Shown here: piece by piece, positions 2,517 to 29,837 of the stretch
Layout of the letters: each line of letters begins with the position of its first letter
Numbering within the stretch: the stretch's first letter is position 1
NCBI GenBank assembly: GCA_052168235.1
Contig: JBQLZK010000038.1
Location: 1 to 46,717 of the forward strand
DNA length: 46,717 nucleotides
Reading direction: 5' to 3'
Source: Thainema sp.
GTDB taxonomy: Bacteria; Cyanobacteriota; Cyanobacteriia; Phormidesmidales; Phormidesmidaceae
Made by a program: the position numbers and the translations under genes
Notes under the pieces: model-generated
What the model was told of the DNA's origin: nothing
Databases searched by the model: none
What the model saw: the letters and a program-made list of their open reading frames with translations, nothing else

Positions 2517-3791
2517 TTAAGCAACTAATTGCATACCAGCATCAGCCATTGAGGGCGTCAGATCTCCAGCCTGGCCGACTGAAGGCTGACCAAGAATCGG
2601 ATCGGTGAGTTGGTCTCCTGTACCATTGCCATTGAAGCCACCTGTAGAGCCCAGATCCACATCAGGCACTGGAGTAGTAGGCGTAGTGGGTACAATATCC
2701 GGATCTAGATCAACTGAAGGCTGAGTAGGATCTTGACCGCCGATGATATCGCCACCAATATCGCCACCAACGTCAGGGTTAGTGATGATGTCGATATCTC
2801 CACCAACCACAGGCTGATTCGGATCTTGACCGCCGATGATGTCGCCACCAATGTCACCACCGTTATCACCACCGATGACACCGCCATCACCGTCGCCGCC
2901 CATATCAGGGTCAGTTACACCGGAAGCAAGCCCTTGATTCTCGTACCAAATCAAGGAATTATTACCAGCAACCAGCAGATCGGCATCGGTATCACCATCT
3001 ACATCGGCTGAAATGATGGAGGTTGCACCTGTAATCCCTGTCGAGAGCAAGTTTGCTTCAGAAAAGGTTCCAGTGCCGTCTTGATTTTCGTACCAGCTAA
3101 TCTCACCTGTGGTCGTGGATGCTGACAGCACATCTGCATCACCGTCGCCATCGATATCCGAAGTGAAAACGGTTTCAGGATTAACAGCCGTATTTGTAAT
3201 GACATTGGCAGTCCAGGTCGTACCATCGCCATTGGCATTTTCATACCAAGTAATGGTGTTGTTAGTTGGTGACGAAGAGAGGGCATCGGCATCACCATCA
3301 CCATCGATATCAGCAGCAAGAATAGAACTTGCACCAAAAGCGGTATCGGAAATCGTGGTTTGAGCGTCGGAGCTGAAGAAAACGTTTGCCATATCGTCGT
3401 TCAGAATGATTCCAGTTTGTTGTTCAGTTGCGATGATTGCTTCACTTGAAGAAGCGTTGGAAAGAGTGACGTTAAACAAATCCGCGTTTTGCAGTCCGGG
3501 TTGCTCAACTTCTGGGATTTCATCACCCGCCACCTCGACCGTAATTGTCTGGACTGCTTCTCCCGCAGCAAAGGTAACTGTTCCACTCGGAAATGTACCG
3601 CCAAAGTCGCTTTCATCTGCAGGCAGTTCCCCATCTACAACTGCCGTTAGCACCGGGCTATTGACCGTGTAGTCTACTGTTAACTCATTTGTCGTATCGC
3701 CAGTGCGTACAACCTGAAATGTAAACGGTGTAGTGCCGCTATCGCCTTCTAGTTGTACAGCGTTTTGGGCGAAAAGGTACACGTTAGACAT
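2517..3791 (-). CDS. Calx-beta plus FG-GAP-repeat Ca-binding protein with Gly/Asp-rich repetitive C-terminus
   Basis: EGDSGTT..F.V.R.G and G.I.NDD Calx-beta signature; three D[IV]DGDxDADxL FG-GAP repeats; GGDIGGDIIGGQDP repeated twice. Confidence 0.85.
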   Translation of the reverse strand: MSNVYLFAQNAVQLEGDSGTTPFTFQVVRTGDTTNELTVDYTVNSPVLTAVVDGELPADESDFGGTFPSGTVTFAAGEAVQTITVEVAGDEIPEVEQPGLQNADLFNVTLSNASSSEAIIATEQQTGIILNDDMANVFFSSDAQTTISDTAFGASSILAADIDGDGDADALSSSPTNNTITWYENANGDGTTWTANVITNTAVNPETVFTSDIDGDGDADVLSASTTTGEISWYENQDGTGTFSEANLLSTGITGATSIISADVDGDTDADLLVAGNNSLIWYENQGLASGVTDPDMGGDGDGGVIGGDNGGDIGGDIIGGQDPNQPVVGGDIDIITNPDVGGDIGGDIIGGQDPTQPSVDLDPDIVPTTPTTPVPDVDLGSTGGFNGNGTGDQLTDPILGQPSVGQAGDLTPSMADAGMQLVA

Positions 3792-10235: not shown

Positions 10236-10313
10236 GGTTAGGCATTGGGTAGCCGATTAGCCTAAATTATGTACGAAAAGTGAATAAAGATAGAGAAAAG
10301 AGCTTAAAACGCT

Positions 10314-10419
10314 TATATCAAGTTTGGCTGAAAACCCATGATTTATTTTTTGTGAAACGTTTGCGGAGCAAACGTTTCACAAAAAATAAATCGGGTTCTT
10401 ACACACAGGCTTGATATTA
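10314..10419. repeat. Palindromic MITE-like element (family copy 1)
   Basis: ATTTATTTTTTGTGAAACGTTTGC-GGA-GCAAACGTTTCACAAAAAATAAAT with TATATCAAG/CTTGATATT ends; related copies at 26172-26277, 14091-14133 (half) and 20172-20255. Confidence 0.75.
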
Positions 10420-10492
10420 GAATTAGGCTCTTTCAGCAGTAAGTTGTTCTAATTTGGCAAGGACAGAGCGCGAAAATGGAGTTGATATCCGA

Positions 10493-15503: not shown

Positions 15504-15718
15504 CGAGAGCCGTTATTGCAAATTATTATATTGCCACCGGACACGGTGCTAGCATACTCCCTGCAAGGGTTTCGTGCTTCAGATCACAGACCTGAGATTT
15601 CCTGAGTTTCCTCCCAAAAGCCTCGACAAAGACCATAGTTTTTCCGTAGTGACGGCTACAAAATCGATTGTTAGTTTGGAATCGTCCGATGTTAAAGCCC
15701 CCAACGGAGAAACAATCT

Positions 15719-17701
15719 ATGAACGGTAATCTCGAATTCTTGCTTAATCTCATTATCAGCAATCTGTTCCCTGATGCGCCCCCGATCGATAATTTAGGCG
15801 ACGTTTTCTTTGGTGATGACGGCAACGACCAGTTTGTTGGAGGAGATAAACAAGATATCTTCTTCGGAGGAAAAGGAAACGACAAAATTGAAGGCGGTGA
15901 CGAAACTGACGTAGCCTTCGGTGGTGCAGGTGACGACACTATCGTTGGTCAGCGCGGTGACGACGTTGTTGCAGCCGGTGCAGGTGATGACCGCGTGATC
16001 TGGAACAACGGCGACGGTAGCGACCTAATTGATGGTGGTTCTGGTTACGATGTCTCTGAAGTCAACGGTTCCAACAATAGTGGTGATGAATTCACTCTTC
16101 AGCAAAACGACAAGGGACAAGCCATTTTCGACCGCGTCAACCTCGGCCCCTTCACCCTGACTCAAGACAGCATTGAGCAGATGGAAGTCAATGGTCTAGG
16201 CGGTGACGATTCCTTTACCATCGGTGATTTGTCTAACACAACTATCAAACGCATTCTATTCTCGGGTGGAGACGGTAACGACGTCTTAGATGCACGGGAA
16301 AGTGCAACGCTGATTGAAGCCGATGGTGGTGCGGGTGATGACCTGCTGCAAAGCGGTTCCGCTGCTGACAACCTCAAAGGTGGAGACGGTAACGACACCA
16401 TCGTTGCTCAGCGGGGCGATGATGTGATTGATGCTGGTGACGGTGACGATCGCGTGATTTGGAACAATGGCGACGGTAGCGACCTGATTAATGGTGGCAT
16501 GGGCTTTGATGTCTCTGAAGTCAACGGTTCCAACAACAGCGGTGATGAATTCACCCTCCAGCAAAATGACCAGGGACAAGCCATTTTCGACCGCGTTAAT
16601 CTCGGCCCCTTCACATTAACTCAAGACAACATTGAGCAGATGGAAGTCAACGGCCAAGGTGGCGACGATTCCTTCACTATTGGTGACCTGTCGAAAACCA
16701 CGATTGAAAAGGTCGTATTCTCGGGTGGAGACGGGAACGACGTCTTAGATGCACGAGAAAGTGCAACACCGATTGAAGCCGATGGTGGTGCCGGGGATGA
16801 CCTGCTGCAAAGCGGTTCCGGTGCTGACAACCTCAAAGGTGGAGACGGTAATGACACCATCGTTGCTCAGCGGGGCGATGATGTGATTGATGCGGGTGAC
16901 GGTGACGATCGCGTGATTTGGAACAATGGCGACGGTAGCGACCTGATTAATGGTGGCATGGGCTTTGATGTCTCTGAAGTCAATGGTTCCAACGCTAGCG
17001 GTGATGAGTTCACCCTCCAGCAAAATGACCAAGGACAAGCCATTTTCGATCGCGTCAACCTCGGCCCCTTCACCCTGACTCAAGACAACATTGAGCAGAT
17101 GGAAGTCAACGGCCAAGGTGGTGACGATTCCTTCACCATTGATGACCTGTCGAATACTACGATTCAGAGCATCTTGTTCTCGGGTGGAGATGGCAACGAC
17201 ATCTTGGATGCCGGGAACACCGCAACGCCCATTGTAGCCGATGGTGGCGCGGGCGATGACATCCTGATCGGTGGTTCCGGTGACGATATTCTGATCGGTG
17301 GCGACGGTAGCGACCTGCTGATCGGTGGAGCTGGTAACGACATCCTGATTGGTGGCAACGGGCCGGACAGCTTCGGCTTTGACAGCGGAGCACTGTTCAA
17401 TCCTAGCGATATCGGTACTAACCAGATTCAAAACTTTGATGCGGCTACCGATAGCATCATCCTGGATCAGACGGTCTTCGCCGCCATTACTGGAGATAGC
17501 TTTAGCTCAGACTACTGTGGCATGGTTGCTACCGATGCTGAGGCTGCTTCGAGTGATGCGTTGATTGTCTACAGCATGGGTTCGGGTAACCTGTACTACA
17601 ACCCTAATGGTGCTGAAGATAGCTACGGTAACGGCGGACAGTTTGCCGTGCTTGAAGGTGCGCCAACTCTAACGGCTGATAACTTTGTTGTTCAACCGTA
17701 G
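15719..17701 (+). CDS. Hemolysin-type (RTX) Ca-binding repeat protein
   Basis: Many GGxGxDxL nonapeptides; three near-identical 153-aa (459-bp) modules; no N-terminal signal, consistent with type I secretion; ATG at 15719 with GGAG SD. Confidence 0.9.
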   Translation: MNGNLEFLLNLIISNLFPDAPPIDNLGDVFFGDDGNDQFVGGDKQDIFFGGKGNDKIEGGDETDVAFGGAGDDTIVGQRGDDVVAAGAGDDRVIWNNGDGSDLIDGGSGYDVSEVNGSNNSGDEFTLQQNDKGQAIFDRVNLGPFTLTQDSIEQMEVNGLGGDDSFTIGDLSNTTIKRILFSGGDGNDVLDARESATLIEADGGAGDDLLQSGSAADNLKGGDGNDTIVAQRGDDVIDAGDGDDRVIWNNGDGSDLINGGMGFDVSEVNGSNNSGDEFTLQQNDQGQAIFDRVNLGPFTLTQDNIEQMEVNGQGGDDSFTIGDLSKTTIEKVVFSGGDGNDVLDARESATPIEADGGAGDDLLQSGSGADNLKGGDGNDTIVAQRGDDVIDAGDGDDRVIWNNGDGSDLINGGMGFDVSEVNGSNASGDEFTLQQNDQGQAIFDRVNLGPFTLTQDNIEQMEVNGQGGDDSFTIDDLSNTTIQSILFSGGDGNDILDAGNTATPIVADGGAGDDILIGGSGDDILIGGDGSDLLIGGAGNDILIGGNGPDSFGFDSGALFNPSDIGTNQIQNFDAATDSIILDQTVFAAITGDSFSSDYCGMVATDAEAASSDALIVYSMGSGNLYYNPNGAEDSYGNGGQFAVLEGAPTLTADNFVVQP

Positions 17702-18229: not shown

Positions 18230-18868
18230 CTACAAATTGAGCGGTTGAACATTCAGATCCTTCAGCGTGATTGAAAAATGGCGCTGTTCACCTGTTGCAA
18301 TGAAGGAAACAATCACCTCACAGGCCACCGCAACCGTTAGCATCACCAAATTGCGAGCTAGCGGATAATCACAAATATCATCATTCACGTCCGAAGGTAC
18401 TCGGTAATCATCATTCCAAACCACTTCCGCGTAATCAGCCGCAAGTCCCGCGTGGAGACAAGAAATTCCAGCTTGATCGACGTAATTTTTCACTGCTCGA
18501 CGAGAAATGCTGTTATCAAAAACATCAATGATCAACTTGCTCCCATTAAGGAGTTGGGCAGCATTATCTACAGTTAATTTTTTAGTTTCAATTTCGACCT
18601 TTGTGCCAATTGCTCGATACAGATTATTTGCCAAAATTTTGGCCTTAAATGCACCGACATCGGAACGATAATACGGCTGAGTTGAAAGATTCCGTTCTTC
18701 AATGCGATCGCAGTCAATTACCTTGAGTTTGCCGAACCCAGCCCGAGCCAAATTCTCAGCTAGATTGGCACCCAAAGCCCCCACGCCACAAAGAGTTACG
18801 GGATAGTCCTTCAGCTTTGCCATCACCGCATCGGTTCGGTAAAGTTGTTCATGGAGAAAGATAGTCAT
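18230..18868 (-). CDS. ThiF/E1-like adenylyltransferase (ubiquitin-like activating enzyme)
   Basis: GVGALG nucleotide loop, DxDRIEERNLSTQ, GAFKA, IIDVFDN; no CxxC Zn pairs; Cys in DDICDYP; ATGA overlap with upstream gene. Confidence 0.9.
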   Translation of the reverse strand: MTIFLHEQLYRTDAVMAKLKDYPVTLCGVGALGANLAENLARAGFGKLKVIDCDRIEERNLSTQPYYRSDVGAFKAKILANNLYRAIGTKVEIETKKLTVDNAAQLLNGSKLIIDVFDNSISRRAVKNYVDQAGISCLHAGLAADYAEVVWNDDYRVPSDVNDDICDYPLARNLVMLTVAVACEVIVSFIATGEQRHFSITLKDLNVQPLNL

Positions 18869-19692
18869 AGTCCTTCCATCACACCCACTAAGGATTGCAG
18901 GTCAAAATCGCGATCGCGCCCGCTCAAGCAAATACCAGAGCTGACTACCGTTAAGTCATTTTTTGTGATCGCACTGGTATGGCGAGTGCCGTCAGCCATT
19001 GTCCAATCAACTGTCCAGTACTCACCCCGATCCCGGAACTGGTGCAGTTCGCCGCCGCCAAGTTTGAGCGCCTGCCGCAGTCGGCGCTCGTCGCGCTGCG
19101 GTTGGGCAAATCCGGCTGTGCGCTGCGTGACTAACTCATATAGCGATCGCATTTCGGGCGTCATGTCCTTAAACTGCAAGTCTTCAACCGGAGTGAGCTG
19201 CTTGAGATTAGCTTGCAGGGTTTCTGCGATCTCAGGATCAGCCCGCCGATCAACCTCTTCAAACCAGCAGGACTGACCGTTCCAGCGAGCTGTGATTTGC
19301 TCAAATGCTACGCCTTCGGTTATCAGATGCACCAGCACGGGCTTAACAACTTTGAACCGCTGTCGCATATCCGCTTCATTGACTGGATAAGCTAGCCAGG
19401 TTCGATTCTGTAAGCGATAGGCTAACCGCAAGCGAATCGATTGAAACTGCTGCAAGTATGCAGCAATCTGGAATAGATCAGCTTCTTCTACTAGCGTTAC
19501 GGTCTGCGCATCCACAGGCTGAAAAATCCCCCATCCCTCAAACTGCTCGGGTTTCGGAATAAAGGTGTAAACCATGCCTGCAACCCGCGTGCGGACTCGC
19601 CCAGCCTTGACGCAGGGGGCGAGGAATTGAGTTGTTTGCAGGTGTGCTTCAGCACTGGCAATCTGATTCAAAAGCTGGCGGATGTCAGTCAT
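18865..19692 (-). CDS. Hypothetical protein with candidate E2-like C-terminal domain (SSGICLSG)
   Basis: 275 aa; translationally coupled between NADAR and ThiF; E2 assignment is inferred from G-I-C-L followed by an aromatic residue and an amphipathic helix. Confidence 0.8.
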   Translation of the reverse strand: MTDIRQLLNQIASAEAHLQTTQFLAPCVKAGRVRTRVAGMVYTFIPKPEQFEGWGIFQPVDAQTVTLVEEADLFQIAAYLQQFQSIRLRLAYRLQNRTWLAYPVNEADMRQRFKVVKPVLVHLITEGVAFEQITARWNGQSCWFEEVDRRADPEIAETLQANLKQLTPVEDLQFKDMTPEMRSLYELVTQRTAGFAQPQRDERRLRQALKLGGGELHQFRDRGEYWTVDWTMADGTRHTSAITKNDLTVVSSGICLSGRDRDFDLQSLVGVMEGL

Positions 19693-20125
19693 AGCGCAAA
19701 ATTTCGCGAACTTCCATTAGAATTTGTCCCAGTTTGTTCTTGCCGCTGCCGTCTTTGCCACAGCCCCAGTAGTAGTCAATAGGGGAATTTTCGACGATTA
19801 GTTCATTCCCAGTACTGAGTAAAATTTCTTGAATATTGGCATGGGTGCTAAACTTTTGCAGCACAGCTTTATGCATCACTTCATCCTTGACTTGTTCCCA
19901 GTCGGAACGAAGTGGCAATGTGCGATCGCGCCCCATGTTGGCAGCCTGTTTTGGCGTTTTGGTTTGCCGTACCTTTTCTAGATAAGAAGTGCCGACAAAC
20001 TTTTGTGCCTGAAAGTAATGTTCACTGGTTGCCCAATACAGCTCATCGAGCATGAAGCCATGCGCTGAGAAATTGGAGAAGCAACCGTAGGGTTTCTCTC
20101 GTTCAACGTAGAAATAAATGGTCAT
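19685..20125 (-). CDS. NADAR (YbiA-like) family protein
   Basis: FSNF, TSEHYFQAQKF, R.DWE.VK..VM, KF, LL.TG...IVE.SP.D.YWG.G..G.G.N.LG.ILM.VR. Confidence 0.95.
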   Translation of the reverse strand: MTIYFYVEREKPYGCFSNFSAHGFMLDELYWATSEHYFQAQKFVGTSYLEKVRQTKTPKQAANMGRDRTLPLRSDWEQVKDEVMHKAVLQKFSTHANIQEILLSTGNELIVENSPIDYYWGCGKDGSGKNKLGQILMEVREILRYD

Positions 20126-20171: not shown

Positions 20172-20255
20172 ACCCGACAATTGATTGTTTGAGAAGCTTG
20201 GCTTAGCCAAGCTTCTCAAACAATCAATTGGGTTCTTATACATGGACTCAAATCA
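20172..20255. repeat. Palindromic MITE-like element between RNA unit U1 and NADAR
   Basis: CAATTGATTGTTTGAGAAGCTTGGCT-T-AGCCAAGCTTCTCAAACAATCAATTG followed by GGGTTCTTATAC, as in the 10.3 kb and 26.2 kb elements. Confidence 0.7.
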
Positions 20256-20257
20256 TA

Positions 20258-20463
20258 CCTGCGTGCAAGTTTTTAGAGCATTGCGCGTTCTCAGTTACTT
20301 GGGGGACTCCGCTGGTGAGTTCTTACACACTCTTTCAAGGATGGCTACTTCTAAGCCCACCTCCCAGGTTCTTCGCACTCCCCGTTTACAAGCGCCCACT
20401 GCATGGCAGCGTCACGTTTCCTCTCGTACTCGTATGTAGGCTCCACAGTTTAGGGCACGCAGG
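20258..20463 (-). ncRNA. Y-RNA-like unit U1 carrying 23S sarcin-ricin loop and H42-H44 GTPase-associated-centre mimics
   Basis: Terminal stem CCUGCGUGC/GCACGCAGG; AGUACGAGAGGA at 20430-20419; CUGG-GAGGUGGGCUUAGAAGUAGCCAUCCUUGAAAGAGUGUGUAAGAACUCA-CCAG at 20367-20312. Confidence 0.85.
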
Positions 20464-20467
20464 ATAT

Positions 20468-20484
20468 ATACTACAAATACTACA
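20468..20484 (-). promoter_or_regulatory. Tandem TGTAGTAT boxes overlapping the predicted -10 of the U1-NADAR-E2like-ThiF unit
   Basis: ATACTACA at 20468-20475 and 20477-20484, 4 nt from the U1 5' end. Confidence 0.65.
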
Positions 20485-22680: not shown

Positions 22681-24150
<1,470 letters not shown>

Positions 24151-24245: not shown

Positions 24246-24433
24246 CCGCGCAAGTTACAGAAGCTAAGTCAGTACTGAGTTACAAGTGCTGAGCTGCTTG
24301 CTCAGTCCTCAGTCCTCATCCCTCAGTCCTAACCTTTTGCCTGCTATGGGTCTCAGGCTTGCAGCGTACACCCCAGTGTACGCACCAGTTTGTGTTTTGG
24401 TAGGGTATGTAAGCTTCTGCGATCGGGGCGCGG
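24246..24433 (-). ncRNA. Y-RNA-like unit U2 (three-hairpin cargo, unidentified; contains a heptamer-repeat insertion)
   Basis: 5' CCGCGC-CCCGAUCGCAGAAGCUUACAUAC ... AGCUUCUGUAACUU-GCGCGG 3'; same scaffold as U1, U3, U4 and U5. Confidence 0.75.
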
Positions 24434-24457: not shown

Positions 24458-24604
24458 CACTTCGTGCAAGTCGAAAAAGCTGTTGTTTCATACACAGGAT
24501 TCGTAGCTTGCTTCCGCGAAGCGGTACCTATGACTGATCGATCCAAAATCGATTGCTCTACCACTGAGCCAGTATGTAAGCTTTTGGGGTTAGGGCACGA
24601 AGTG
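24458..24604 (-). ncRNA. Y-RNA-like unit U3 with embedded tRNA-like cloverleaf (anticodon UUG), T-loop interrupted
   Basis: Stem CACUUCGUGC/GCACGAAGUG; D arm UGGCUCAGUGGUAGAGC; anticodon arm AUCGA-UUUUGGA-UCGAU; T arm AUAGGU[22-nt insert]CGAAUCCUGU. Confidence 0.8.
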
Positions 24605-25427: not shown

Positions 25428-25609
25428 TTTCATGCAAGTCAGCAAAAGCGATTGACAGCTTACGGTCGCTCTTACCAACAAAGTTGGCAGCGGGCACGTA
25501 TGCTAGATCTGCGAGAGACCTAGAATCACACTTCGCTGGTTCGATCGCTCGAACTTCGCTACCTTAGGACCGTTATTCGTGTGTATGCTTCTGCGGTCGG
25601 GGCACGAAA
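25428..25609 (-). ncRNA. Y-RNA-like unit U4 carrying a circularly permuted 23S domain IV (H67-H71) mimic
   Basis: Stem UUUCGUGC/GCAUGAAA; AUAACGGUCCUAAGGUAGCGAA at 25576-25555; UGCCCGCUGCC...GGUAAGAGCGACCGUAA at 25496-25460. Confidence 0.85.
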
Positions 25610-25618
25610 GAAATCTTC

Positions 25619-25834
<216 letters not shown>

Positions 25835-26171: not shown

Positions 26172-26277
26172 TAATATCAATTCCGTGTATAAGAACCCTG
26201 TTTATTTTTTGTGAAATGCTTACTAAGCAAGCATTTCACAAAAAATAAACAATGGGTTTTTAACCGGATTTTATATA
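26172..26277. repeat. Palindromic MITE-like element (family copy 2, inverted relative to the 10314 copy)
   Basis: GTTTATTTTTTGTGAAATGCTT...AAGCATTTCACAAAAAATAAAC. Confidence 0.75.
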
Positions 26278-26280
26278 AAT

Positions 26281-26400
26281 GTCGTGCAAGTTGAAAAAGC
26301 TGTTGATTCATACACAGGACTTGAACCTGCAATCGACTGTTCTAGAGACAGTTGCCCTACCATTAGGCGAGTATGTAAGCTTTTTCGATCAGGGCACGAC
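26281..26400 (-). ncRNA. Y-RNA-like unit U5 with embedded tRNA-like cloverleaf (anticodon CUA)
   Basis: Stem GUCGUGC/GCACGAC and AAAAAGCU/AGCUUUUU; D arm GCCU-AAUGGU-AGGGC; ACUGU-CUCUAGA-ACAGU; GCAGG-UUCAAGU-CCUGU; acceptor CAUAC/GUAUG continues into the scaffold with no CCA. Confidence 0.85.
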
Positions 26401-27523: not shown

Positions 27524-27553
27524 TTGACGCTATGTAGTACAAGAATGTAGTAT
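27524..27553 (+). promoter_or_regulatory. Promoter of the DIP1984-ncRNA-rtcB unit overlapped by two TGTAGTA(T/C) boxes
   Basis: -35 TTGACG 27524-27529, 18-nt spacer, -10 TAGTAT 27548-27553; TGTAGTAC at 27533 and TGTAGTAT at 27546. Confidence 0.75.
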
Positions 27554-27583
27554 AAACTCATCCGTAGAGAAGCGGTAAAGAAA

Positions 27584-28042
27584 ATGAAGCTAGCAGAAGC
27601 CCTGATTGTGCGGGCAGATTGTCAAAAGCGGATTGCTCAACTTCAGCAGCGCCTCATGCGGAGCGCCAAAGTGCAAGAAGGCGAGCAAGCGCCCGAAAAC
27701 CCACAGGAACTGCTGGCTGAGCTAGATGCAGCAATTGTTGAACTGACTCAACTCATCCAGCAAATTAATAAAACCAACGCTATTACCTCCTTGCAGGATC
27801 AGACTCTGTCTGAAGCCCTCGCCCAGCGGGACACCCTGCAAACGAAGCGCAATATTTACAGTCGCTTAATTGAAGCAGCAGCGATTCAGCCAACTCGCTA
27901 TAGTCAATCTGAAGTCCGCTTTGTCAGCACCGTCAACATCGCCGAACTTCAGCGCCAAGTGGATACACTGGCTCGCGACTATCGCGTTCTGGATTCTGCG
28001 ATTCAGGAGATCAACTGGCAAGTTGATTTACTCGATAATTAA
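27584..28042 (+). CDS. DIP1984-family coiled-coil protein
   Basis: MKLAEAL..RAD.QKRI.QL..R......VQEG..P.E.P..L...IN.TN...RYS.SE....S......LD..IQ..NW..DL. Confidence 0.88.
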   Translation: MKLAEALIVRADCQKRIAQLQQRLMRSAKVQEGEQAPENPQELLAELDAAIVELTQLIQQINKTNAITSLQDQTLSEALAQRDTLQTKRNIYSRLIEAAAIQPTRYSQSEVRFVSTVNIAELQRQVDTLARDYRVLDSAIQEINWQVDLLDN

Positions 28043-28655: not shown

Positions 28656-29837
28656 ATGTCCTATCAACAACTCAAAATCTCTACACCAGCGCCTGTGTTC
28701 TCCTGGGCCAATCACGACCTGGGACACGCCGAAATCAGCATGGCGAAAAACGTTGCGTCCCTTCCCTTCGTGTTTAAGCATGTGGCGCTGATGCCCGATG
28801 TGCATCTGGGTAAAGGTGCGCTAGTTGGCTCCGTCATTGCTACCAAAGACGCCATTATTCCGGCAGCAGTCGGCGTAGACATCGGCTGCGGCATGTGCGC
28901 CATTCAAACGCCGTTTCAGGCCGACCAGCTTGACGGCAAGCTGAAGAAAATCCGCTCGGATATTGAAGCGGCGATTCCGACGGGCTTTGACCAGAATAAG
29001 GAGTCCGATAAGCAAGTCGATAACTGGCAGGGCTGGCAGCAGTTCAAAGAGCTGCATTCCGGCGTGCAGCACCTAGCGGGCAAAGCCCAAAAGCAAATGG
29101 GTTCGCTGGGTGGCGGCAACCACTTCATTGAGGTGTGTCTGGATACCAACGATCAGGTGTGGCTGATGCTGCATTCTGGTTCGCGCAATATCGGCAACAT
29201 GCTGGCTCAGAACCACATCAAGACGGCCAAAGAAGTGGCGAAGCTGGCCGAAATGAAGCTACCTGATCCCGATCTGTCCTACTTCGTAGCCGGAACGCCG
29301 GAGTTTGCCGCTTACTGGCGCGATTTGCAGTGGGCGCAGGACTATGCTCGGTTCAACCGTGAGGTGATGATGACTCGCTTCAAGCGAATTGTCGAAAAAC
29401 ACCTGGCAGGCGGCAAGCCAATCAAGCCACTGCTGTCGGTAAACTGCCACCACAACTACGCCGAGCAGGAAACTCACTTTGGCGAAGCGGTGTATGTCAC
29501 CCGCAAGGGAGCCGTGCGCGCTCAAACCAATGACTACGGGATTATTCCCGGTTCAATGGGCACCAAGTCCTACATTGTCAAGGGCAAGGGCCATGCCGAT
29601 AGCTACTGCTCATGCAGCCACGGTGCTGGCCGCACGATGTCCCGTAACCAAGCTAAGAAGCGCTTTTCACTGGATGATCTACTCCAGCAAACCGAAGGCG
29701 TGGAATGTCGTAAGGACAAGGGTGTCTTGGATGAAATTCCAGGTGCCTACAAGCCAATCGATGAGGTGATGGCTAGCCAGTCTGACCTGGTTGAGATCGT
29801 GGCAACCCTAAAGCAGGTCGTCTGCGTGAAAGGCTAG
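28656..29837 (+). CDS. rtcB: RNA-splicing/repair ligase RtcB
   Basis: MPDVH.G, VGVDIGCG, GSLGGGNHF.E, LHSGSR, NCHHNY, RKGA, IPGSMG, HGAGR, DEIP.AYK, KG. Confidence 0.98.
   Translation: MSYQQLKISTPAPVFSWANHDLGHAEISMAKNVASLPFVFKHVALMPDVHLGKGALVGSVIATKDAIIPAAVGVDIGCGMCAIQTPFQADQLDGKLKKIRSDIEAAIPTGFDQNKESDKQVDNWQGWQQFKELHSGVQHLAGKAQKQMGSLGGGNHFIEVCLDTNDQVWLMLHSGSRNIGNMLAQNHIKTAKEVAKLAEMKLPDPDLSYFVAGTPEFAAYWRDLQWAQDYARFNREVMMTRFKRIVEKHLAGGKPIKPLLSVNCHHNYAEQETHFGEAVYVTRKGAVRAQTNDYGIIPGSMGTKSYIVKGKGHADSYCSCSHGAGRTMSRNQAKKRFSLDDLLQQTEGVECRKDKGVLDEIPGAYKPIDEVMASQSDLVEIVATLKQVVCVKG

Follow-up and report, generated by a model that had tools for sequence, protein, structure and literature searches.

The minus strand of positions 20258-20463 of the window (the whole 46,717-nt stretch of Thainema sp. 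DNA analysed here) carries a conserved non-coding RNA of about 206 nt that fuses the sarcin-ricin loop (SRL) of 23S rRNA with a copy of the kink-turn and helices H43/H44 of the GTPase-associated centre (GAC). This SRL-GAC RNA is modular, with a carrier stem bearing the SRL and the kink-turn/H43/H44 arm as cargo. A Ro60-fold gene and genes for RNA and ADP-ribose repair are linked to it, and it lies either behind TrcR-type boxes or in tRNA arrays. The finding is real and is a form of Ro60/Y-RNA system whose cargo mimics rRNA; for such a cargo no precedent was found in the literature searched. The best explanation, to which we give a probability of about one half, is a Y-RNA-like ribonucleoprotein decoy of the ribosomal factor-binding centre, which would be tethered to Ro60 and act against ribosome-damaging toxins within an RNA-repair regulon.

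Table 1. Coordinates of the SRL-GAC RNA, its parts, its sibling carriers and neighbouring genes in the window
Feature	Position	Strand	Remarks
SRL-GAC carrier RNA, whole predicted ncRNA of ~206 nt	20258..20463	(-)	Covariance model R1, 234.8 bits; sequence in training set
P1 5' arm of shared carrier stem, candidate Ro60-binding module	20455..20463	(-)	
P2 5' arm and near-invariant CUACAUAC, common to sibling carriers	20432..20444	(-)	
SRL hairpin, UACG/CGUG stem round the 12-mer (20430-20419)	20413..20434	(-)	
P3, short covarying hairpin	20397..20412	(-)	Two-sided changes in 5/6 pairs
P4 helix (20395-20390 with 20288-20283) and internal loop bearing the H42-44 arm	20283..20395	(-)	
H42-like arm bearing, in the place of Kt-42, a kink-turn consensus (3-nt bulge, tandem G.A/A.G)	20302..20383	(-)	
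H43/H44 GAC copy	20312..20367	(-)	Rfam LSU 1093-1148
P2 3' arm and P1 3' arm of carrier	20258..20279	(-)	
Tandem TGTAGTAT TrcR-type box over TAGTAT -10 element	20468..20484	(-)	Predicted start 20470-20462
NADAR gene, downstream	19685..20125	(-)	14/128 loci
275-aa protein without a known family, most frequent neighbour	18865..19692	(-)	32/128 loci
ThiF/E1-like gene	18230..18868	(-)	30/128 loci
477-aa divergent Ro60/Rsr protein (TROVE fold and vWA), predicted partner	22681..24114	(-)	
Sibling carrier, conserved two-hairpin cargo	24247..24432	(-)	
Sibling carrier, tRNA-like cargo with insertion	24463..24599	(-)	ARAGORN: tRNA-Gln, 24485-24578
Sibling carrier, 23S H69/H71-like cargo	25431..25606	(-)	
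Sibling carrier, tRNA-like cargo	26283..26398	(-)	ARAGORN: tRNA-Pyl, 26305-26377
RtcB RNA ligase	28656..29837	(+)	Behind DUF6847 gene (27584-28042)

Two rRNA elements in one RNA

An earlier note on this DNA had proposed that the SRL and the GAC are joined in one 206-nt RNA, and both elements are indeed present. The SRL 12-mer occurs once in the window and in none of 100 shuffles, and it is also single in the 7.5-Mb assembly. As no 23S is assembled there, the 23S of relatives served as the reference. Positions 32-54 of the covariance model match the genuine 23S SRL (E 0.04-0.055). Derivation of the 12-mer from the H39/H40 junction was rejected, as the model matches the true SRL; a few real 23S sequences do carry a similar word at H39/H40 and gave false matches (L096, L113, L116, L121, L153, L174 and L176), and one further match arose by chance (L166). 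The 12-mer, with its bulged-G motif and GAGA tetraloop on a closing stem, is predicted to form an SRL, although the bases beneath the motif are unlike those of rRNA and include one extra 3' base.

The GAC copy aligns without gaps to Rfam LSU_rRNA_bacteria (53.1 bits, gathering score 50, E 4e-13), as the note had expected of H43/H44, and by manual count 46 of its 56 positions are identical to the consensus letters. The match with a related cyanobacterial 23S reaches into H42 (56/68 identical with one gap; score 83 against a shuffle maximum of 38), which bears out the H42-like part as well. The kink-turn was assigned from the general consensus of this motif. In a relative's rRNA operon the GAC precedes the SRL by 1,491-1,550 nt, in agreement with the spacing of about 1500 nt and the opposite order stated in the note. 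Beyond 1093-1148 nothing in the RNA matches 23S in Rfam, and its flanks are mRNA genes or tRNA arrays rather than an rRNA operon. Because the P2 5' arm and CUACAUAC are common to the sibling carriers, they are not rRNA-derived. An origin of P2, P3 and P4 from H94, H96 and H97 was also rejected: P2 belongs to the carrier, and the P3 and P4 alignments score at or below shuffle level. BLAST of the RNA against E. coli genomes gave no match.

Two short plus-strand ORFs overlap the RNA, and the host genome contains many GCGATCGC repeats. Outside the RNA, a palindromic, MITE/REP-like element occupies 20178-20230 and recurs at 10312-10420 and 26174-26276, with about 40 relatives in the genome.

Structure and covariation

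The UACG/CGUG stem claimed for the SRL forms in the local fold, but that fold is not significant by itself (z +0.99) and the whole RNA folded on its own gives z -1.41, so the support for the structure comes from covariation. In a MAFFT alignment of 29 copies, two-sided changes occur in 18 of 50 hand-assigned pairs, a count reached in 0 of 500 shuffles; slid pairing registers give 0-5 such pairs. In a set of 43 copies with greater diversity they occur in 33/50 pairs, a figure that is biased because this alignment was fitted to the model. The note had read the CUGG/CCAG closing helix, swapped relative to rRNA, as a sign of selection. This swap proves nothing by itself, since it also occurs in a genuine 23S (L096), but covariation within the family (U-A in 16 and C-G in 13 of 29 copies at the closing helix) does show selection.

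The tertiary contacts of the GAC were followed through 186 distinct cores, numbered as in E. coli on the assumption that the H43 loop anchors the register. Since the pattern that selected these cores included the SRL and H43, invariance in those two elements is partly ascertainment, and since the copies are related, counts across them are not independent events. The 1060/1088 pair, a tertiary contact in rRNA, is kept as U1060/A1088 in 184/186. The 1072/1092/1099 triple is UUA in 170 cores, CCG in 7 and other or mixed in 9, against CCG in 14/14 fetched cyanobacterial 23S stretches; the 1082/1086 pair is UA in 177, CG in 7 and other in 2. Both are rRNA tertiary contacts in the accessible text of PMC2952862. 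Cores compatible with the GAC fold number 185 at 1071/1091/1100, 177 at 1072/1092/1099, 184 at 1082-1086 and 184 at 1060-1088, from which an rRNA-like GAC fold is predicted to be conserved in the SRL-GAC RNA.

The bases A1067 and A1095, which are factor contacts, behave otherwise. The equivalent of A1067 is A in 148 of the 186 cores (38 lack it) and that of A1095 in 167 (19 lack it), so the invariance expected of a GAC does not extend across the family, yet both are A in 14/14 cyanobacterial 23S stretches. The statement that these loops are kept holds for the window copy, in which both bases are A, and not for its relatives. The idea of a factor-site mimic is accordingly sustained as regards a selected structural mimic and weakened as regards thiostrepton binding or exact EF-G docking.

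The SRL and GAC do not touch in the 50S subunit and are joined through H97-H42 (PMC2330231, accessible text). P4 may covalently replace this link.

A carrier stem with varied cargo

Two features escaped the earlier note: the TrcR box in the promoter, and the nature of the 5'/3' stem as a carrier that recurs in tRNA-like and H69-like siblings and is associated with a Ro60-fold gene. Weak end-to-end model matches appear beside a vWA gene in genomes without the SRL-GAC RNA, and their source is P1, P2 and CUACAUAC, which recur round different cargo. A regular expression finds the carrier module five times in 7.5 Mb, always in the window and within about 4 kb of the Ro60-like gene, and the same five carriers are the top matches of a covariance-model search. 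The ARAGORN calls of tRNA-Pyl and tRNA-Gln (Table 1) are probably carrier cargo and not true tRNAs; some of the tRNA calls in these arrays are carriers.

The cargo of the H69/H71 sibling is identical to 23S at 25 of 26 nt (score 48 against a shuffle maximum of 33). Its H69 stem is circularly permuted and opened at the loop, with compensatory changes seen by eye in 12 aligned copies, and it occurs in 13/401 genomes, always within about 3.5 kb upstream of the Ro60-like gene. Readings of sibling cargos as 16S-like were rejected, their similarity not exceeding that of shuffles, and the same holds for the 24247-24432 cargo against 16S or 23S. Outside the window, carriers enclose tRNAs permuted in the order of YrlA, short hairpins resembling anticodon arms, or the SRL without the GAC.

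Carriers of about 109 nt with an SRL hairpin, one other hairpin and no GAC were found at L308, L314, L326, L343, L345, L382, L409 and L411, of which L314 adjoins a NADAR gene. In a viral contig (L240:3892-4550), a Ro60-like gene is preceded by four carriers in tandem, three of them, by eye, in T-arm/closed-acceptor/D-arm order, the topology of YrlA in the accessible text of PMC4201824. At L218:648-731, upstream of carriers and a Ro60-like gene, lies a short match to the tmRNA tRNA-like domain of 42.8 bits (gathering score 47).

A divergent Ro60-like protein as predicted partner

The 477-aa protein is predicted to have the Ro60 fold, a helical ring with a vWA domain. Its model (pLDDT 93) superposes over the full length on Ro60/Rsr chains with TM 0.62-0.70. 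A profile of 73 relatives (A2) matches Ro60 9NEN (E 1.5e-17), 1YVP (2e-12) and Rsr 2NVO (4e-9); the single protein matches among PDB sequences only the Ro60 of Thermus phage phiLo (E 0.018). The Pfam TROVE search did not match it and found no canonical TROVE gene in the host genome. The wider clade of Ro60-like proteins numbers 1,020 representatives.

The Ro60-like gene is present in 39 of 40 RNA-positive genomes among the 401 sampled, a count that includes partial protein matches, one of just 59 aa, and in 8 of 361 RNA-negative ones; in 5 of these 8, other carriers lie beside the gene. Fifteen of the 40 RNA-positive genomes belong to one genus, and because the genomes are related, a Fisher p-value overstates the co-occurrence, which could also reflect a co-transferred stress island. 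Where RNA and gene share a contig (23 genomes), 20 of the pairs are separated by no more than 13 kb, always with both members on one strand, and 10/23 by no more than 2.7 kb; in the window the RNA is 2.2 kb downstream of the gene, on the same strand. One genome (G233) has a full SRL-GAC RNA (155 bits), and two queries found no Ro60-like gene there. Four of five family-level genomes tested had no Ro60-like gene by this query, and the SRL or the 3' part of their RNA copies is mutated or cut short. Around metagenome loci, whose flanks extend no further than 2.5 kb on either side, the gene occurs at 5/33 SRL-GAC loci and 0/6 SRL-only loci.

Promoter and genomic context

The tandem TGTAGTAT lies just before P1, and a TGTAGTAT box over a -10 element is the TrcR site of Anabaena in the accessible text of PMC10272220 and PMC8421152. 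Its repeats abut here and are 2-3 nt apart in the site shown in the accessible text of PMC8421152. A generic scan of the locus for sigma-70 promoters and terminators found nothing. Across the family, the box precedes 45/64 copies without an upstream tRNA, where 0.0006 would be expected per 60 nt, and 0/54 array copies. Array copies, 54 of 118, stand just 3' of a tRNA-like gene, many of them between tRNAs; stand-alone copies sit between a promoter and same-strand ORFs.

The annotated neighbour clusters, to which these counts are confined, are led over 128 loci by the 275-aa protein (32), ThiF (30), a Ro60-like protein (26), NADAR (14) and PARG (12), followed by RNA ligase (8), GNAT (7), Tpt1 (4) and DUF6847 (4). 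No family was found for the 275-aa protein, and its model has a pLDDT of 49. TGTAGTA boxes at about 27534-27555 precede the DUF6847 gene and rtcB, and the window also contains rsgA, a member of the TrcR regulon in the accessible text of PMC10272220. Near the ThiF/E1 gene, a 66-aa ORF ending in Gly (25619-25819, minus strand) has no Pfam match; one might guess at a ubiquitin-like protein.

Distribution

BLAST found non-rRNA copies of the RNA in 6/150 other genomes of the order. Of 36 loci found by BLAST, 31 have the exact SRL 12-mer. Over the phylum, the RNA occurs in 40/401 sampled genomes; 41 had matched, and the covariance model confirmed one weak match and rejected another. A pattern scan of species genomes gave at least 113 stretches, and the 45 inspected comprised 7 genuine rRNAs, 1 chance match and otherwise family members, among them records labelled Acidobacteriota, Planctomycetaceae and Ca. 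Thiomargarita (labels of MAGs, which may be misbinned). A metagenome scan gave at least 120 stretches, with the GAC motif in 70 of 108 distinct matches. Viral contigs gave no match to the SRL+GAC pattern and two to a carrier+SRL pattern, neither of which has a carrier by eye. In three copies (L321:2469-2611, L383 and L312), a palindromic element has inserted itself behind the 5' strand of P4 and interrupts the RNA.

Copies are present in complete chromosomes and two plasmids, which excludes a chimera; the note had named a chimera with an rRNA operon as its own possible refutation. Together with the rRNA tertiary contacts kept through compensatory changes, these copies show that the RNA is neither chimera nor pseudogene.

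Relation to known systems

The bacterial Y RNAs (YrlA, RF02553; YrlB; Yrn1) resemble the SRL-GAC RNA in their long bulged 5'/3' stem bearing an effector module, in the Ro60-fold gene adjoining on the same strand (within about 4 kb) and in the RtcB-type repair context, and some siblings share the permuted tRNA topology of YrlA (L220, 33.6 bits, below the RF02553 gathering score of 69). The cargo here is, however, a mimic of the 23S SRL and H42-44 and not of tRNA; the length is 206 nt against 80-130; GNCGAAN0-1G is absent from the window copy and from 303/306 carriers; and the partner belongs to a divergent clade missed by Pfam TROVE. Rfam RF02553 does not match at the SRL-GAC RNA. From the shared carrier, the siblings with tRNA-like or YrlA-type cargo, the Ro60-like gene and the TrcR-box or tRNA-array setting, it would seem to function as a Y RNA with an rRNA mimic for its effector module, yet it is not a YrlA member, lacking the motif and a tRNA domain and being 206 nt long. 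Thermus phage phiLo likewise has a divergent Ro60 with several RNAs upstream, but its Yrl1 and Yrl2 use a CGAA bulge, and rRNA mimicry is not seen in the accessible text (PMC12135203).

The likeness to H95 and H42-H44 of 23S extends over the 12-mer, the H43/H44 fold, the base triples, the 1082-1086 pair and the kink-turn position. The order is nevertheless reversed, about 1,500 nt are removed, the triple is mostly U.U-A instead of C.C-G, and A1067 and A1095 are relaxed. Leaders of ribosomal-protein mRNAs, such as the L10 leader, also mimic a protein-binding rRNA site, kink-turn included. They act in cis on ribosomal-protein operons with little sequence identity, whereas the SRL-GAC RNA is free-standing, keeps the rRNA sequence and includes the SRL, and it does not lie in the 5' UTR of a ribosomal-protein operon. 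The cyanobacterial tRNA L-arrays and TrcR regulon offer the same promoter box and location, with rtcB and rsgA nearby (PMC8421152 and PMC10272220), and the accessible main texts of these papers mention no 23S-like, ncRNA or TROVE element. GOLLD and ROOL are structured ncRNAs within tRNA arrays too; the SRL-GAC RNA as a whole differs in having no Rfam match, and the accessible part of PMC12286853 reports for them no similarity to the SRL or the L11 site of rRNA. SRL or carrier words were not found in the searched text of PMC4201824. No prior description of such an RNA was found in the openly accessible literature searched.

The Y RNAs described so far mimic tRNA, and the known mimics of rRNA act in cis as leaders. 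An SRL and GAC RNA that stands free on a Ro60-linked carrier would, if true, extend Y-RNA mimicry to the ribosome. It would allow a direct test of the role of bacterial Ro60 and Y RNA in repair operons, decoy or tether. It would also provide a 200-nt version of the factor-binding site, already tested by evolution, in which the cooperation of SRL and GAC could be studied.

Function

Two rRNA sites attacked by factors and toxins, on a stem shared with tRNA-mimic RNAs beside a Ro60-type gene, make a stress-induced ribosome decoy possible. The RNA would quite likely be transcribed when translation is impaired, like the Anabaena trn operon and rtcB, and the divergent Ro60 would with similar likelihood bind the carrier stem and present or stabilise the cargo. 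The GAC arm would fold like rRNA and probably load uL11 and uL10. P4 would place the H42 arm where the H97-H42 contact keeps it near the SRL in the 50S, a proposal that is geometrical and not drawn from sequence. In the least certain step, the particle would compete as a substrate for nucleases, glycosidases or modifying toxins directed at the SRL and GAC, and would thereby protect ribosomes. Meanwhile RtcB, Tpt1, NADAR/PARG and PNPase would repair or clear damaged RNA, and the sibling carriers would cover tRNA, anticodon loops and H69/H71. The decoy is favoured because the cargos are known toxin targets, the SRL can stand alone, repair enzymes are neighbours and the bases for factors and thiostrepton are relaxed. 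YrlA has been proposed as a competitive nuclease inhibitor (PMC7790460, accessible text). No matching toxin was found. A wider reading, about as likely as not, takes the carriers as a modular library of RNA mimics that spans the translation apparatus as a whole and is served by a divergent Ro60 clade of cyanobacteria, some other bacteria and phages. On a single interchangeable carrier stem this library would hold mimics of tRNA, permuted tRNA, the anticodon loop, 23S H69/H71, the SRL alone and the SRL with GAC. The last of these would be a factor-binding centre reduced by nature to its minimum, on which uL10/uL11 assemble and which recruits GTPases or ribotoxins in trans.

Among the rival explanations, a Ro60-tethered particle that serves host factors as a sponge or scaffold, keeping or titrating uL10/uL11/bL12 or binding translational GTPases or RelA, is possible but rather doubtful, and this includes the variant in which Ro60 and repair or decay enzymes are tethered to host factors, as Y RNA tethers Rsr to PNPase. 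Tethering is a demonstrated Y RNA function, the GAC tertiary core and kink-turn are conserved, rsgA lies both in the window and in the TrcR regulon, and an SRL with a GAC suits a factor touching both (PMC2330231, accessible text). The relaxation of A1067 and A1095 speaks against it, as do the SRL-only, anticodon-only and H69 cargos, which have no single common host partner. It is unlikely that the mimic is a bait whose attack is sensed on Ro60 and triggers its neighbours (the 275-aa protein, ThiF/E1, the small Gly-ending protein and NADAR) as a defence or signalling system. The 275-aa and ThiF genes do follow the RNA at the frequencies given above, also on a plasmid, and repair operons are known to respond to damaged tRNA ends, but array copies between tRNA genes lack these neighbours and the 275-aa protein has neither a family nor a confident model.

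A sponge for thiopeptide antibiotics would fit the window copy, with A1067 and A1095 both in place, and a regulon induced by ribosome-targeting antibiotics (PMC8421152, accessible text); the cores lacking either base, and an SRL and carrier that would be needless, make it very improbable. Slightly more improbable still is a cis-acting rRNA-mimic leader that regulates the downstream operon as ribosomal-protein leaders do. Stand-alone copies are suitably placed for this, but array copies are not, the downstream genes vary, the closed 5'/3' stem is common to tRNA-like siblings, and there are no ribosomal-protein genes among the annotated neighbour clusters. The assembly without its own 23S and the overlapping plus-strand ORFs might suggest rRNA pseudogene debris, an assembly chimera or coding sequence, to which we attach a negligible probability given the copies in complete genomes and plasmids, the covariation and the concerted change of the triple away from rRNA; the coding reading is further weakened because 1-2 nt indels break any frame.

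Other elements

Sixty-two viral stretches (L076-L078 and L245-L306) carry H43 and the start of H44, with a long insert before the 3' half of H44 in the three examined in full, and many lie in tRNA arrays. An SRL-like word lies within 400-500 nt in 2 of the 62; 3/3 records tested had no Ro60-like gene, and 20 loci scanned at the gathering score showed only tRNAs and one neighbouring GOLLD. They are apparently a separate phage family of GAC mimics. Unrelated genes in the window encode an RTX calcium-binding repeat protein (15668-17701, plus strand) with 459-nt repeats and an FG-GAP repeat protein (2517-3791, minus strand).
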